A stretch of DNA of 64,000 bases from an uncultured Chloroflexia bacterium (lineage in GTDB: Bacteria; Chloroflexota; Anaerolineae; JAAEKA01), in assembly GCA_963707275.1 (NCBI GenBank), contig CAVPPH010000001.1:92625-156624 (forward strand), written 5' to 3'. A program made the translations under genes and the position numbers. Numbering within the stretch: the stretch's first letter is position 1; every line of letters begins with the position of its first letter. The notes beneath the pieces are model-generated. The model was not told the origin of the DNA. It saw nothing but the letters and a program-made list of their open reading frames with translations, and searched no databases. Shown here one piece after another: positions 13,534 through 64,000 of the stretch.

Positions 13534-14636
<1,103 letters not shown>

Positions 14637-56954: not shown

Positions 56955-58509
<1,555 letters not shown>

Positions 58510-58511
58510 AA

Positions 58512-58577
58512 CAGAGACGAAAAAGGGAAACAAGGGAAAAGAGGGAAATCGGAGCGTTTCCCGGCTGTTTTCGTCCT
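58512..58577. repeat. purine-rich AAGGGAA-type repeats closed into a hairpin
   Basis: gacgaaaaagggaaacaagggaaaagagggaaatcggagcgtttcccggctgttttcgtc. The outer arms are gacgaaaa / ttttcgtc. The motif family is the same as at 8771-8840. Confidence 0.6.
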
Positions 58578-58588
58578 GATAAGGATGC

Positions 58589-59861
58589 ATGACTATGACC
58601 CAAAGAAAACTCGGCCGCGGCGTGGCAGTCGTCGGGGCCGGCATGAGCCAGTTTGGAACGTTTCCCGAGAAGGCCACGCGCGATCTGTTCGTCGAGGCCT
58701 TTCGCGAGCTGCGCGGCATCCGTGGACAAAGGACTGGACCCGCGCGACATCGAGGCGCTGTTCATCGGCAACTACAGCAGCGACCTGTTTGAGCATCAGG
58801 GCCACACGGCGCCGATCATGGCTGATTGGGTCGGGCTGACACCGCGGCCGGCGGTGCGTATCGAGGACGCCTGCGCCAGCAGCGGCGTGGCGCTGCGGCA
58901 GGGCATCATGGCGGTCGCGTCAGGGCTGCACGACGTGGTGCTGGTCGGCGGCATCGAGAAGATGAGCAACCTGCCGACGGCCGAGGTCACCGACACGCTG
59001 GCAACGGCGGGAGATGTGCTCTACGAAATACCGGCCGGCTTCACCTTCCCCGGCTTCTACGCCGCGATCGCCATCGGCCTACATGGCGCGCTACGGCGCG
59101 ACGCCCGAGGCGCTCCTTCGGGTCGGCATCAAGAACCATGAGAACGGTGCGCTGAACAGCAAGGCGCAGTTCAACGTCTCCATCGGCGGCATCATGCAGG
59201 CGCCGCCAGGCCAGCGCCGGCAAAAAAGGGCCGTCCGGTGCCGCAGTGGTCCGACGAGATGGCGTTCCTGCAGGACGACGTGTACAACCCGATGATCGCC
59301 TGGCCGCTGCGGCTGTTCGACTGCTCGCCCATCACCGACGGGGCGGCGGCGCTGCTGCTGGTATCCGAGGAGATCGCCGCCAACTTCAGCGACACGCCCA
59401 TCGCGATCATCGGCACCGGCCAGGCCAGTGACCGGGCGCTGCCCAACCGTCCCGATCTGACCAGCCTGGGCGCGGCGCGCCATGCCAGCCAGCAGGCCTA
59501 CCAGATGGCCGGCGTGACGCCGCAGGACATCAAGATCGCCGAGGTGCACGATTGCTTCACCATCGCCGAGATCGTCGCGACCGAGGATCTGGGGTTCTTC
59601 GAGCCGGGCCAGGGCTACGTGGCCGCCGAGGAAGGGCTGACGGCGCGCAACGGGCTGCGGCCGGTCAACACGTCGGGCGGGCTGAAGTCGAAGGGCCACC
59701 CGGTCGGCGCATCGGGCGCGGCGCAGGTGATCGAGGTCTGGAAGCAGATGCGCGGCGAAGCCGGCCAGCGCCAGGTCGATCGCGACGTGGACATCGCCCT
59801 GACCCACAACGTCGGCGGCACCGGGCAGACCTGTGTGGTGCACATTTTTGAGCGGCGGTAG
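58589..59861 (+). pseudogene. thiolase-like protein of the SCP-x / DUF35-associated type, at least 3 frameshifts
   Basis: ..VAVVGAGMSQFG.., ..IEDACASSGVALRQG.. (Cys), ..FDCSPITDGAAALLL.., ..EVHDCFTIAE.. (His) and ..NTSGGLKSKGHPVGASG.. are collinear across ORFs 58589.., 58653.., 59014.. and 59238..59861. Confidence 0.8.
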
Positions 59862-59970
59862 TCGGTGATCAGTAACCAGTTACCAGTAACCAGTAATCAG
59901 TGAACAGTTGATGCGTCACAGATCACAGATCACAGATCACTGACAACTGATCACTGACAACTGATCACCG
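59862..59970. repeat. long array of CAGT-type heptamers, CACAGAT x3, then the inverted ACTGA-type arm
   Basis: gtgatcagt aaccagt taccagt aaccagt aatcagt gaacagt .. cacagat cacagat cacagat cactgac aactgat cactgac aactgat cacc. The two halves are mutually complementary. Confidence 0.75.
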
Positions 59971-59986
59971 GATCCAGGGAGCAACA

Positions 59987-60412
59987 ATGGCTACTGAGAG
60001 CTTTACGCAAGCGGACTTTACTGGTTGGCTGGCCGAGCATAAGCTGATGGGCGCGCGCTGCCAGTCCTGTGGTGCACTCTACGCCGAGGCGCGGCCGATG
60101 TGCCCCGACTGTTTCGGCGATGACATGGCCTGGGAGCAGTTGTCGGGTCATGGCAAGCTGTCTGCGTTCACAATTGTCTACATCGCACCGACCGCCATGA
60201 TCGAAGCGGGCTACGGGCGTGACAATCCCTACGTCACCGGGATCGTAGCGCTGGACGAAGGACCCTCGATCAGCGGGCAGGTCATAGGTTTGGACGTCAG
60301 GGACGCTGCACAAGTTGCGGTAGGCATGCCTCTGCGGGCCACCTTCCTGACCCGCGGCGACGGCGATGCACGGCGAACCTTCCTGGCTTTCGAGCCTCAG
60401 TCCCAGGCATAG
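59987..60412 (+). CDS. DUF35 zinc-ribbon/OB-fold protein (thiolase partner)
   Basis: Rubredoxin-like CQSCG..x..CPDC followed by an OB-fold segment (..GKLSAFTIVY..GIVALDEGP.ISGQV..), immediately after a thiolase-like gene. Confidence 0.8.
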   Translation: MATESFTQADFTGWLAEHKLMGARCQSCGALYAEARPMCPDCFGDDMAWEQLSGHGKLSAFTIVYIAPTAMIEAGYGRDNPYVTGIVALDEGPSISGQVIGLDVRDAAQVAVGMPLRATFLTRGDGDARRTFLAFEPQSQA

Positions 60413-60435
60413 AAACAAAGCGAGAAAGTGCTGCT

Positions 60436-61305
60436 ATGACCGTCGAAGTGGGCCAGGTCGCCACCGTCAGCCGGGTGTTTACCCAGGAAGACTTCAATCG
60501 CTTCGCCGCATTGATCGGCGACGACAACCCGATCCATGTCGATCCGGCATTTGCCGCCCGCGGCAAGTTTGGTCGCACGGTGGCGCACGGCATGCTGCTT
60601 TACAGCGCCGTCAGTTCGACCTTGAGCAGCCGGTGGCCCTTTCTGGGCTGCAAGCAGTTGGTCCAGGAACTCAAGTTTCCTGCGCCGACCTATGCCGATC
60701 AGACAGTGGAGATCAGAACCGAGGTGATCGGTGTCATGCACAGCGATGGGCTGGCCGAGCTTGCGACCGAGGTCATCCAGGGGGATGGCGCGTACGGTCT
60801 GAAGGGCAAGATGCTGGTGCGGCTGCCGGGATCATCCGCCTTTCAACTTCAGGCCGCCAGCACCGGAAGCGAGGTGTTGCCACTATCCGGCGCGACGCTG
60901 CGGCATCTGGCTGTCGGACAGCGGGCCAGTTTGCAGCGCCGTTTCTCCGCCGCTGATCTGGCGGATTATGCTGATCTGATCGGTGAGCGCTGTCCGGTTT
61001 TCAGCGATGCTGACCGTGCCCGCCAGGCTGGATTTGCCGACACACCGGTGCCAGGTGCGCTGCTGGGCGGGCTTTTCTCAACGCTGCTGGGCACCCGGCT
61101 ACCCGGCTCAGGCACCAACTATCTGAAACAGCGCCTCGAGTTTCCGTCGCCCGCCTATCCTGAGCAGGACTTGACCGCCGAGGTCGAGATCGTGCGCATC
61201 CGGGCCGACAAACAACTGGTAAACCTGGCGACTCGCTGTGTCACATCATCAGGGTTGACGGTGTGCCAGGGCGAGGCGCTGGTCTTAGTCAGCGACGTTC
61301 CGTAA
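60436..61305 (+). CDS. double hot-dog MaoC-like (R)-specific enoyl-CoA hydratase/dehydratase
   Basis: Two MaoC-like halves: ..FTQEDFNRFAALIGDDNPIHVDPAFA......GRTVAHGML.. and ..FSAADLADYADLIGERCPVFSD......GFADTPVPGALL... Confidence 0.75.
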   Translation: MTVEVGQVATVSRVFTQEDFNRFAALIGDDNPIHVDPAFAARGKFGRTVAHGMLLYSAVSSTLSSRWPFLGCKQLVQELKFPAPTYADQTVEIRTEVIGVMHSDGLAELATEVIQGDGAYGLKGKMLVRLPGSSAFQLQAASTGSEVLPLSGATLRHLAVGQRASLQRRFSAADLADYADLIGERCPVFSDADRARQAGFADTPVPGALLGGLFSTLLGTRLPGSGTNYLKQRLEFPSPAYPEQDLTAEVEIVRIRADKQLVNLATRCVTSSGLTVCQGEALVLVSDVP

Positions 61306-61356: not shown

Positions 61357-62826
61357 ATGAAGAGACTGTATACAGTCATAGCACTGCTGCTGGTAGCGAC
61401 CATGCTGCTGGCGGCCTGTGGCGGAGGCGCAACGCCCGAGCCGACGACCGCTCCCGAACCGGCGCCTACCACTGCGCCTGAGCCGACCGCGGCGCCCGAG
61501 CCTGCGGTCACCGAAGCGGCGCCGGCCGAACCTGCGGCTACCGAAGCGCCGGCCGAGGTCATGGGTGCATTCACCTGTGACGCGCCGATCAAGATCGGTC
61601 TCATCACCGACCTGACGGGCGGTCTGGCGATCTATGGCGTCATGGCGCAGCGCTCATTCCTGCTGGGCATGGAGTACGCTTCCGGTGCAGCCGGCGAAGA
61701 GATGGGCGACAACGCCTGGTCGTACAAGTTCGGCGACTGCGAAGTGCAGGTGCTGGTGCGCGATGACAAGGGCAGCGCGGACGAGACGGCAACGCTGGCA
61801 CGCGAGCTGATCGAGAAGGACCAGGTCGACATGCTGGTCGGAACGGTCAGCTCCGGCAGCACGGCCAGCCTGCAGGAGATCGCCAAGGAGAACGACGTGG
61901 TGTTGATCGTCGCGCCGGCGGCGGCCAACGACATCACCGGCGTGAACTTCAACGACCACACCTTCCGGGTCAGCCGCGAGAACTACCAGGACTTCATCAA
62001 CCTGTGCGAGTATCTGACCTCAGAGTACGACACGTTCATCCAGATCGCGCCCGACTACAGCTTCGGCTACGGCGGCGCAGCCTCGGCCCGTGACGCCTGC
62101 ACCAAGTTCGGCGGGACGTTCGTGGCCGACGACATCTTTGCGCCGCTGGACACCAGCGACTTCACGCCATACATGGAGCAGATCGCCGATAGCGGCGCCG
62201 ATGCGTGGATCGTGACGTGGGCCGGCGGCGGGTTCGTGCCGATGTTCCAGTCGGCCAAGGAACTGGGCGTGCTGGACAGCATGGGCATGGGTGCGTCCTA
62301 CTTCGACAACAAGACGATGGCAGCGATCTTCGGACCGGTGGCGGACAAGATGCAGGGACAGGCCAGCGGCATCCTCTACCACTACACTGCGCCGGACAAT
62401 GCCATCAACGACTGGCTGGTGGAGCAGGTCAAGGCCCGCTACGGTGAGCCGCCGGACCTGTTCGACGCCGACGGCATGAACGCCGCGCTGATGGCCGTCG
62501 AGGCTCTGAAGAAGACAGGTGGCGACACCAGCTCAGCCGCGCTGATTGCAGCGATGGAAGGTCTCTCGTTCGAAGGACCGAAGGGTCTGATCGAGATCCG
62601 TCCCGAGGACCATGTCGCGTTGCAGGACATGTACATCGTCAAGCTGACCGATCTGGCTGCGCCCGACTTTGCGATGTTCGACCTGGTCACCACGACCCGG
62701 CCCGAGCCGCCCTGCCTGCTGCCTGAAGGCATGACCGATCGCTGCGGCGACCTGCCCGTCGGCAGCCTCAGCGAGATCGCCATGGAGGACACACCGGCGC
62801 GGCGGCAATGGCGATGCCAGATCTGA
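61357..62826 (+). CDS. ABC-transporter solute-binding lipoprotein, Leu/Ile/Val (Peripla_BP_6)-type, first module of a tandem array
   Basis: Lipobox LLAACGG, a Pro/Ala/Thr/Glu-rich linker, then ..IKIGLITDLTGGLAIYG.., ..DDKGSADETA....LIEKD.VDMLVGTVSSG... Confidence 0.8.
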   Translation: MKRLYTVIALLLVATMLLAACGGGATPEPTTAPEPAPTTAPEPTAAPEPAVTEAAPAEPAATEAPAEVMGAFTCDAPIKIGLITDLTGGLAIYGVMAQRSFLLGMEYASGAAGEEMGDNAWSYKFGDCEVQVLVRDDKGSADETATLARELIEKDQVDMLVGTVSSGSTASLQEIAKENDVVLIVAPAAANDITGVNFNDHTFRVSRENYQDFINLCEYLTSEYDTFIQIAPDYSFGYGGAASARDACTKFGGTFVADDIFAPLDTSDFTPYMEQIADSGADAWIVTWAGGGFVPMFQSAKELGVLDSMGMGASYFDNKTMAAIFGPVADKMQGQASGILYHYTAPDNAINDWLVEQVKARYGEPPDLFDADGMNAALMAVEALKKTGGDTSSAALIAAMEGLSFEGPKGLIEIRPEDHVALQDMYIVKLTDLAAPDFAMFDLVTTTRPEPPCLLPEGMTDRCGDLPVGSLSEIAMEDTPARRQWRCQI

Positions 62827-64000
62827 GCGGCCTGACCTGTGAGGAGCCGATCAAGATTGGTCTGATCACCGACCTGACCGGCGGGCTGGCGATCTATGGC
62901 GTCATGGCGCAGCGCTCCTTCCTGCTGGGCATGGAGTACCTGGCCGACAGCTTCGACGCCGACACCAACACGGCTACCTTTGGCGACTGCCAGGTCGAGG
63001 TGCTGGTGCGCGACGACAAGGGCAGCGCGGACGAGACGGCCACGCTGGCACGCGAGCTGATCGAGAAGGATCAGGTGGACATGCTGGTCGGGACGGTCAG
63101 TTCCGGCAGCACGGCCAGCCTGCAGGAGATCGCCAAGGAGAACGACGTGGTGTTGATCGTCGCCCCGGCGGCGGCCAACGACATCACCGGCGTGAACTTC
63201 AACGACCACACCTTCCGCGTCAGCCGCGAGAACTACCAGGACTTCATCAACCTGTGCGAGTACCTGACCTCAGAGTACGACACGTTCATCCAGATCGCGC
63301 CGGACTACAGCTTCGGCTACGGCGGCGCGGCCTCGGCCCGTGACGCCTGCACCAAGTTCGGCGGCGAGTTCGTGGCCGACGACATCTTTGCGCCGCTGGA
63401 CACCAGCGACTTCACGCCCTACATGGAGCAGATCGCCGACAGCGGCGCCGATGCGTGGATCGTGACGTGGGCCGGCGGCGGGTTCGTGCCGATGTTCCAG
63501 TCGGCCAAGGAACTGGGCGTGCTGGACAGCATGGGCATGGGTGCGTCCTACTTCGACAACAAGACGATGGCAGCGATCTTCGGACCGGTGGCGGACAAGA
63601 TGCAGGGGCAGGCCAGCGGCATCCTCTACCACTACACTGCGCCGGACAACGCGATCAACGACTGGCTGGTGGAGCAGGTCAAGGCCCGCTACGGTGAGCC
63701 GCCGGACCTGTTCGACGCCGACGGCATGAACGCCGCGCTGATGGCGATCTACAGTCTGGCGGCCAGCGGCGGCGACACCAGCTCAGCCGCGCTGATCGAC
63801 GCGATGGAAGGGCTCTCGTTCGAAGGGCCGAAGGGTCTGATCGAGATCCGGCCCGAGGACCATGTCGCGTTGCAGGACATGTACATCGTCAAGCTGACCG
63901 ATCTGGCGGCGCCGGACTTCGCGATGTTCGACCTGGTCACCACGACCCGGCCCGAGCCGCCTTGCCTGTTGCCTGAAGGTCAGACCGACCGCTGCGGCGA
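61585..64000 (+). repeat. tandem direct duplication of a ~1.25 kb coding unit (a third copy may begin at the window edge)
   Basis: The same sequence recurs with a 1,250-nt offset (for example the shadow ORFs 62020..62382 and 63270..63632). The offset is 1,262 nt at the module start because of a 12-nt length difference in one divergent patch. Confidence 0.9.
62808..64000 (+). CDS. second, near-identical solute-binding module (no signal peptide), runs off the window end
   Basis: The frame is open from about 62763 to 64000, with ATGs at 62808 and 62814 (MAMPDLSGLTCEEPIKIGLITDLTGG..). It is missing from the ORF track because it has no stop in the window. It may be fused to the preceding module if the stop at 62824 is an indel artefact. 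Confidence 0.7.
   Translation, partial: MAMPDLSGLTCEEPIKIGLITDLTGGLAIYGVMAQRSFLLGMEYLADSFDADTNTATFGDCQVEVLVRDDKGSADETATLARELIEKDQVDMLVGTVSSGSTASLQEIAKENDVVLIVAPAAANDITGVNFNDHTFRVSRENYQDFINLCEYLTSEYDTFIQIAPDYSFGYGGAASARDACTKFGGEFVADDIFAPLDTSDFTPYMEQIADSGADAWIVTWAGGGFVPMFQSAKELGVLDSMGMGASYFDNKTMAAIFGPVADKMQGQASGILYHYTAPDNAINDWLVEQVKARYGEPPDLFDADGMNAALMAIYSLAASGGDTSSAALIDAMEGLSFEGPKGLIEIRPEDHVALQDMYIVKLTDLAAPDFAMFDLVTTTRPEPPCLLPEGQTDRCG

Follow-up and report, generated by a model that had tools for sequence, protein, structure and literature searches.

The 3′ end of the 64,000-nt stretch of Chloroflexota DNA analysed here (hereafter, the window) carries two overlapping open reading frames (ORFs) that encode near-identical substrate-binding protein (SBP) modules in tandem. 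The window corresponds to C1:92625-156624 of a long-read assembly of 15 contigs and 5.7 Mb, estimated to be 85% complete. ORF 1 (61357..62826) encodes a protein of 489 amino acids (aa) with a lipobox signal peptide (LLAAC), a Pro/Thr/Ala-rich tether and a 400-aa binding module, and its start is preceded by the ribosome-binding site (RBS) AAGGAGAG. ORF 2 (62808..>64000) begins with an ATG at 62808, has no obvious RBS and encodes the second module. An earlier reading, made from the letters of the window without database searches (hereafter, the sequence-only reading), had described near-identical tandem SBP modules with a 1,250-nt period, the second one without a signal peptide; we read the second ORF in the same way, and we found direct repeats spaced 1250 and 1262 nt with 93-95% identity. 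The two spacings differ by 12 nt because of an indel in patch 1, one of two short stretches in which the modules diverge. The parts of the gene are as follows.

61357..61419, + strand: signal peptide and lipobox, MKRLYTVIALLLVATMLLAA followed by Cys, the predicted lipid anchor (sequence)
61420..61572, + strand: tether rich in Pro, Thr, Ala and Glu, ~51 aa, containing a 30-nt tandem repeat (sequence); predicted to be disordered, since residues 21-63 of the orthologue P0001 have a predicted local distance difference test score (pLDDT) <50
61573..62772, + strand: binding module 1, TCDAPIK..GSLS, 400 aa, Peripla_BP_6/type I periplasmic-binding fold (phmmer, PF13458, AlphaFold2 and Foldseek)
61678..61749, + strand: patch 1 of module 1, ASGAAGEEMGDNAWSYKFGDCEVQ, a β-hairpin from helix α1 to strand β2 (alignments and model)
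62497..62517, + strand: patch 2 of module 1, VEALKKT, the usual module-1 type of the family (EALK), in the C-terminal half of model helix 369-388
62773..62834, + strand: inter-module linker, EIAMEDT..AAAMAMPDLSGL, with a one-base gap at ~62792 and the apparent stop (62824-62826) and start (62808) inside it
62835..64000, + strand: binding module 2, TCEEPIK.., continuing to 64022, with its stop at 64029-64031 outside the window (ORF, past-window sequence and domain table)
62940..62999, + strand: patch 1 of module 2, LADSFDADTNTATFGDCQVE, four codons shorter than the module-1 patch; the same patch is present in module 2 of P0001, and it resembles that of module 2 of P0005 and P0006
63747..63767, + strand: patch 2 of module 2, IYSLAAS (alignments)

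The sequence-based prediction of a lipoprotein relies on the pattern [LVI][ASTVI][GAS]C, with which MKRLYTVIALLLVATMLLAA-C agrees, and both Ala20 and Cys21 are conserved in at least 90% of 70 two-module homologues. At the DNA level, the modules are ~92% identical, 100 of 1200 aligned nt being different. The claim that the divergence is concentrated in two patches was borne out, given that 41 of these differences fall in alignment nt 61-180 (patch 1) and 14 in nt 901-960 (patch 2), with 10 more in the last 60 nt. Outside the patches, the only differences between the modules are DA/EE (columns 3-4), T/E (column 182), A/D (column 326) and M/Q (column 387). The module-2 frame is open from position 62727, that is, 100 nt ahead of the ORF 1 stop, and not 60 nt as previously stated. 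Module 2 ends with ..GSLSGE*, 31 nt beyond the window end (stop at window-equivalent 64029-64031). It had also been proposed that a third copy may follow, based on the EPPCLLPEG.TDRCG sequence at the window edge; this sequence is the end of module 2, and what lies past the window is the remainder of that module, a heptamer-repeat spacer and livG, with no third copy. A genome-wide search of the host genome found no module copies beyond these two.

The sequence-only reading had also suggested that the tandem might be one multi-domain protein and that a single indel near 62800 would fuse both copies. When the frames are joined in this manner, they give an 891-aa protein, which we used as a query against the protein collection. 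Its best match, P0001, is an uninterrupted protein of 892 aa, 97% identical with 100% coverage, encoded on two independent metagenome contigs from a sister species. P0127 (896 aa), which is likewise intact, shows the identical in-frame junction. The linker of P0001 reads ..GSLSDTAMEDTSGAAAMAMPDLSGLTCEEPIK, and the intact linker common to P0001 and P0127 is DTAMEDTSGAAAMAMPDLSGL; the window linker is equally long after one base is added. In the nucleotide alignment to contig L025, the window is one base short at 62792. Based on these comparisons, we strongly infer that the assembly lost this base by error, and the two ORFs almost certainly constitute one gene for a two-module receptor. Since module 2 lacks a signal peptide, it would reach the outside of the cell only as part of a fusion.

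Another reading of the junction takes the frameshift as real: the strain would produce a one-module lipoprotein with an RRQWRCQI tail, and module 2 would have been stranded recently, or the operon would be decaying. The assembled sequence reads so, livG of the same operon is interrupted too, and 475-aa one-module forms are present in close relatives. Nevertheless, we consider this reading improbable, since mreB, phnC and the thiolase gene are likewise disrupted by single-base indels, a genome-wide pattern. The N and C domains of the thiolase lie in different frames, and positions 1-51 and 73-136 of the ABC_tran profile match phnC in different frames. Compared with L025, the window livG has three single-base indels (one missing base and two extra ones), while livG is intact, with 262 aa, in both L024 and L025. 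Additionally, the module core has accumulated 37.5 synonymous and 8.5 non-synonymous changes (dS 0.166, dN 0.010, being the synonymous and non-synonymous divergences, respectively; dN/dS 0.06), which shows that both modules are under purifying selection, and module 2 contains no internal stop or shift over 1.2 kb; for a module without a signal peptide, such constraint makes sense only within an exported fusion. Furthermore, the junction is in frame on several contigs of the sister species. A programmed frameshift was ruled out because the orthologues are in frame. Our DNA search of six relatives for stray junction contigs found none, a result that carries no weight either way.

The PF13458 profile matches with 421.6 bits (cut-off 31.7), in two stretches in P0001, and the phmmer domain table shows that both window modules match the module query over its full length. 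Our AlphaFold2 (AF2) model was built for P0001 (97% identity with the window protein), with 69 homologues. In this model, the modules have pLDDT values >90, while the tether (residues 21-63) and the linker (residues 473-486) have values <50, and the predicted template-modelling score (pTM) is 0.53; these values indicate that the modules have no fixed mutual orientation. The Foldseek comparison gave template-modelling (TM) scores of 0.87 to 3n0x (RPA4397 of Rhodopseudomonas palustris) and 0.84-0.87 to 4ey3, 4zpj and 4evq. The aromatic-acid binding proteins 4ey3, 4eyg, 4evs and 4evq come next among the PDB matches after 3n0x, and each PDB match spans one module only. The genes found downstream are, in this order, a livG-type and a livF-type ATPase gene, the former in pieces and the latter encoding 234 aa, and two BPD_transp_2 permease genes of 528 and 402 aa; one of the downstream ABC_tran genes carries BCA_ABC_TP_C. 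The two permease and two ATP-binding cassette (ABC) ATPase genes would be the cognate transporter genes that the sequence-only reading had advised looking for. By profile, fold and operon, each module is a Peripla_BP_6/LivJ-type (cluster B) SBP.

Each module contains six conserved Cys residues, two of them invariant and four present in at least 90% of the sequences (e.g., 61576-61578, 61738-61740 and those of CLLPEG.TDRC near the module end). This conservation suggests three disulfides, one of which would join the N-terminus to the patch-1 hairpin and another would close a small C-terminal loop.

Two module matches were identified in 98 of the 122 sequences scanned, and ~80 of these 98 are full-length proteins of 846-912 aa with the same plan, i.e., signal peptide, tether, module, linker of ~9-25 aa and module. 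The named sources of the two-module proteins are all Chloroflexota (Caldilineales, Ardenticatenaceae, Promineifilaceae and Anaerolineales). Among activated-sludge and soil Chloroflexota of the class Anaerolineae, this design is common, and its database label is just "substrate-binding domain-containing protein". Two-module loci are also present on contigs of 1.1-3.8 Mb from species-representative genomes, which indicates that the design is not a short-read artefact. The tandem of the window could itself have been produced by the assembler, through the expansion of one gene or the joining of strain variants; the assembly is of the metagenome type and contains errors, and relatives show one module. 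We regard this explanation as hardly credible, given that independent samples contain the same unique linker and the same patch 1 specific to module 2, that the ~80 full-length homologues include some on Mb-scale contigs, and that the bias runs in the opposite direction, with short-read assemblies collapsing or mis-phasing the repeat. A duplication private to this genome was also dropped, since two-module orthologues were found and the 475-aa forms are chimeric, starting as module 1 and ending as module 2. Two homologues have other architectures: P0018 (1173 aa) has an extra N-terminal region of ~370 aa with Bmp/Peripla_BP_1 matches before two LivJ-type modules, and P0115 (1162 aa) has TPR and CHAT domains joined to one module.

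The relationship between the modules was analysed in 70 non-redundant two-module proteins plus the window protein, with module columns 61-270 taken as the core. Within a protein, the cores of the two modules are on average 93% identical. For protein pairs with an overall identity of 70-80%, the core identity is 78.4% between same-position modules and 78.2% between cross-position modules; these values are nearly equal, so module position leaves no trace in the core. Patch 1 (columns 34-60), columns 281-330 and the tail have a higher same-position than cross-position identity, for proteins down to ~70% overall identity. On the core tree, the module-1/module-2 label needs 56 changes (shuffles average 48), and the modules are sister leaves in 36 of the 71 proteins; on the ends tree, the label needs 30 changes (lowest shuffle 39), and there is a pure module-2 clade of 25. 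In the proteins of this clade, the two modules of one protein share a patch-1 identity of 0.38, compared with 0.66 among module 1s and 0.53 among module 2s; the core values are 0.92 for modules of one protein and 0.82 for modules of different proteins.

A within-protein identity higher than the between-protein identity, together with the existence of one-module forms, would also be expected if each lineage had duplicated a single module independently and recently, with no gene conversion. We find this scenario doubtful because the same proteins keep position-specific ends, as seen in the pure module-2 clade on the ends tree, where patch 1 is more alike at the same position (0.53-0.66) than within a protein (0.38) even though the core is 0.92 identical within proteins, and because the linker architecture is conserved throughout. 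When the analysis was repeated with seven proteins, i.e., six from contigs of at least 260 kb and that of the window, the core identity was 0.87-1.0 within proteins and 0.73 between proteins at either position. The concerted evolution of the module core, which the sequence-only reading had put forward, is supported by these comparisons, the long-contig subset included: the core appears to be homogenised within proteins, while patch 1, the C-terminal third and the tail stay position-specific. The patches are the most variable columns family-wide, and the within-protein difference follows column entropy (Spearman 0.82). Nevertheless, mid-module columns of like entropy differ far less between the modules of one protein, which indicates that the patches escape homogenisation. 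We consider this gene to be a clear natural example of intragenic concerted evolution in which certain islands withstand homogenisation.

Assembly effects must be considered in these comparisons. The two modules of P0001 show zero differences over 960 nt; this identical tract is probably the result of short-read mis-phasing, and only the window copy is reliably phased. P0001 and P0127 belong to the same species-level cluster, and each has one patch-2 type in both modules, the type being different between them; P0127 also carries the module-1 patch 1 twice. In the window, whose long-read copy shows the correct phasing, module 1 combines a Z-type patch 1 with VEALKK, and module 2 combines a Y-type patch 1 with IYSLAAS. 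The 475-aa "single-module" forms, including that of the genus representative G003, consist of a module-1 start, a module-2-type patch 2 and a module-2 end, and the G003 contig corresponds to L025 minus one repeat unit. These forms look like the product of repeat collapse or mis-phasing in short-read or hybrid assemblies; the alternative is a real variation in copy number. The 475-aa chimeras are L005 (G003:C18, HK-STAS-CHLO-17), P0121 and P0126. Since short-read graphs evidently take arbitrary paths through the repeat or collapse it, near-100% within-protein identities, and perhaps many of the "one-module" relatives, are suspect. In general, short-read assemblies collapse or mis-phase the 1.2-kb repeat, which yields 475-aa chimeras and modules whose patches are swapped, and long-read-only assemblies have the phase right but add indels that break the gene, so that gene calls are unreliable from either.

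The sequence-only reading had placed the patches at possibly ligand-proximal loops and had attributed their divergence to selected diversification. In the model, patch 1 is a β-hairpin between helix α1 (residues 92-110) and strand β2 (residues 129-137), and patch 2 is the C-terminal (distal) half of the surface helix 369-388, followed by a GGD turn. Patch 1 aligns with the short α1-β2 loop of 3n0x, relative to which the window protein carries an insertion of 6 residues, and with ADINAKGGIKGNKLQI of E. coli LivJ. The mafft and hidden Markov model (HMM) alignments to LivJ are reliable in the first half only, and patch 2 was placed via the secondary structure of the model. In the type I binding fold, the β→α loops line the cleft, while the α→β connections are on the opposite face. 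Of the eleven ligand-contact residues of LivJ, Y18, L77-S79 and A100-T102 align with residues that are identical in both window modules, and module 1 and module 2 share one set of family-invariant columns. A ligand-proximal location is not supported; based on the alignments, the secondary structure of the model and the general features of the fold, both patches are predicted to be distal surface elements. The dN/dS values of the patches are 0.9-1.3, with dS raised to 0.4-0.6. A ratio of ~1 together with a raised dS points to old divergence under relaxed constraint and does not demonstrate positive selection, and the claim of selected diversification was not supported; these regions are also the most variable of the family.

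Even so, the patch types are conserved by position. The module-1 types are '..NG-DYT-SYML.CEIQ' and '..TEALKATGG', and the module-2 types are '..EQVSD-DQW-NF..D.CPVEV' and '..xNALRATGG'. The conservation of these position-specific types over many species ('DYT-SYML.CEIQ / EALK' in module 1 and 'DQW-NF..CPVEV / NALR' in module 2) would favour the idea that the patches are selected, ligand-proximal specificity loops and that each module has a ligand of its own, as is the case for SBD1 and SBD2 of GlnPQ. We judge this idea unlikely, given the predicted location of both patches opposite the cleft face, the identity of the LivJ-contact-aligned residues and family-invariant columns in both modules, and a dN/dS of ~1 and not >1. 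Both modules probably bind the same ligand, judging from these shared residues. The patch types stay distinct despite the homogenisation of the core, so something keeps the patches apart; candidate reasons are their context at the tether or linker entry and the failure of recombination in diverged DNA. The position-specific surfaces (patch 1, patch 2 and the tail) would be located at the lobe I pole that receives the tether or linker. A tentative and rather unlikely extension is that the modules differ in relay roles, with one docking to the permease and the other passing the ligand on, or that these surfaces form an inter-module contact. If the relay were true, lipid-anchored tandem receptors would be a functional device of monoderm-like Chloroflexota and not a mere doubling of dose.

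In a Caldilineales-like clade, we distinguished three patch-1 types, namely, Z (ATGG../ASGAAGEEMGDNAW..), X (A.AQDALVYK.DDC) and Y (ADS[MF].D..T.T.GDC). Their order is Z-Y in the window protein and P0001, Z-X in P0002 and P0007, and X-Y in P0005 and P0006. This pattern hints at the loss of a module from a three-module ancestor or at the exchange or shuffling of modules.

Regarding the ligand, the Leu/Ile/Val-type label of the sequence-only reading is valid at the family level only. A screen of binding proteins of R. palustris included 22 mis-predicted COG0683 proteins; very few of them shifted with Leu/Ile/Val or short amides, and the majority did so with aromatic, fatty or dicarboxylic acids or with other amino acids (PMC3223731). 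RPA4397 (3n0x), the closest structural match of our modules, was given no ligand in that study (PMC3223731). Genes for an acyl-CoA ligase, a hydratase and a thiolase precede the operon. By analogy with the nearest solved relatives and from the gene context, our best guess is an organic (carboxylic) acid that enters an acyl-CoA pathway, which we consider more likely than Leu/Ile/Val.

Taken together, we propose that 61357-~64031 is one split gene for a two-module lipoprotein of ~891 aa, in which each module binds the same or a similar ligand and the core is homogenised by recombination; we assign this reading a probability of roughly 0.8. The chain would consist of a lipid-anchored Cys, a disordered Pro/Thr/Ala tether of ~50 aa, module 1, a flexible linker of ~20 aa and module 2, and one base missing in an indel-prone assembly would account for the apparent start (62808) and the stop (62824). 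Both modules are complete and are predicted to fold independently, as beads on a string. Each of them would capture the same or a very similar ligand and pass it to the LivH/LivM-type permease with its LivG/LivF ATPases, so that the capture sites would be doubled beside one importer. Recombination between the two 1.2-kb repeats would repeatedly homogenise the module core, while the N-terminal hairpin (patch 1), the C-terminal third (including patch 2) and the tail would keep their position-specific sequences. Several points weigh against this proposal. The frameshift may be genuine and very recent in this strain; the broken livG would fit the decay of the whole operon equally well; and the low dN/dS could partly predate a recent inactivation. 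Additionally, a single module is seen in the species representatives of this genus and family, and short-read assemblies probably inflate the identity between the modules of a protein.

Work on tandem binding domains has been almost confined to GlnPQ, which is the nearest functional analogue of our system. In GlnPQ of Lactococcus lactis, a 14-aa linker connects SBD1 and SBD2, and the two domains are largely independent in their action (PMC8025302). Similarly, the receptor described here has two complete binding domains per chain, joined by a short flexible linker (~12-25 aa) and tethered to the membrane beside one ABC importer; this arrangement holds for the window if the one-base gap is an error and is seen directly in P0001, P0127 and the ~80 homologues. 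A large degree of independence between the domains is suggested in our case by the AF2 model, with its confident modules and low pTM. The GlnPQ domains are small, of type II (cluster F), fused to the permease and different in specificity, whereas our modules have 400 aa each and the type I fold of LivJ-type domains, and they belong to a lipid-anchored protein of its own, with the permeases encoded by separate genes; the modules are also 93% identical, with a predicted shared binding site, and appear to be kept alike by recombination. The system resembles LivJ/LivK-LivHMGF (HAAT, TC 3.A.1.4), as well as RPA4397, RPA0668 and RPA0985, in the PF13458 match, the fold (TM 0.87) and the downstream permease and ATPase genes. 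It differs from LivJ/LivK-LivHMGF in having two modules per chain, a lipoprotein anchor, a long tether, six conserved Cys residues per module, an enlarged α1-β2 hairpin and a ligand that, by analogy, is probably not Leu/Ile/Val. In full-text literature searches, we came across no account of tandem receptors of the LivJ type. The feature is real, the gene call is wrong, and the design is a modestly novel variation on a known theme, representing a second, unrelated solution in which full-size LivJ-type receptors are placed on a lipid tether.

The genes upstream of the receptor gene are on the same strand and were assigned by Pfam matches as follows.

57844..61305, + strand: 3′ end of an AMP-dependent ligase gene, a thiolase gene (in several frames), a ChsH2-like gene and a MaoC gene
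59987-60412, + strand: ChsH2-like Zn-ribbon/OB gene
60436-61305, + strand: MaoC double-hotdog hydratase gene

On the sister contigs, the gene order is ECH, AMP-ligase, MaoC, two-module SBP, livG, livF, livH and livM. The thiolase and ChsH2-like genes (window 58589-60412) are missing from the corresponding position of the sister contig L024 (1200-3598), where the AMP-ligase gene abuts MaoC. Between the thiolase and ChsH2-like genes, the window contains an array of 7-nt repeats at 59870-59968, with CAGTAAC and TCACAGA units. The spacer between the binding-protein gene and livG (~64032-64170; L003 4657-4795) has inverted 7-nt units, AGATTGG/CCAATCT, and L025 shows indels of 11-13 nt exactly in this spacer. 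The livH-type permease (L003 6286-7872) has 528 aa, and the BPD_transp_2 profile matches its residues 238-518 only; its N-terminal extension of ~230 aa contains extra hydrophobic segments, and the equal length is kept in L024 and L025. Elsewhere in the window, mreB (13670-14555; C1:106294-107179, minus strand) is split into adjoining pieces that match profile positions 3-206 and 205-295, and an intact second copy is present on contig C6.

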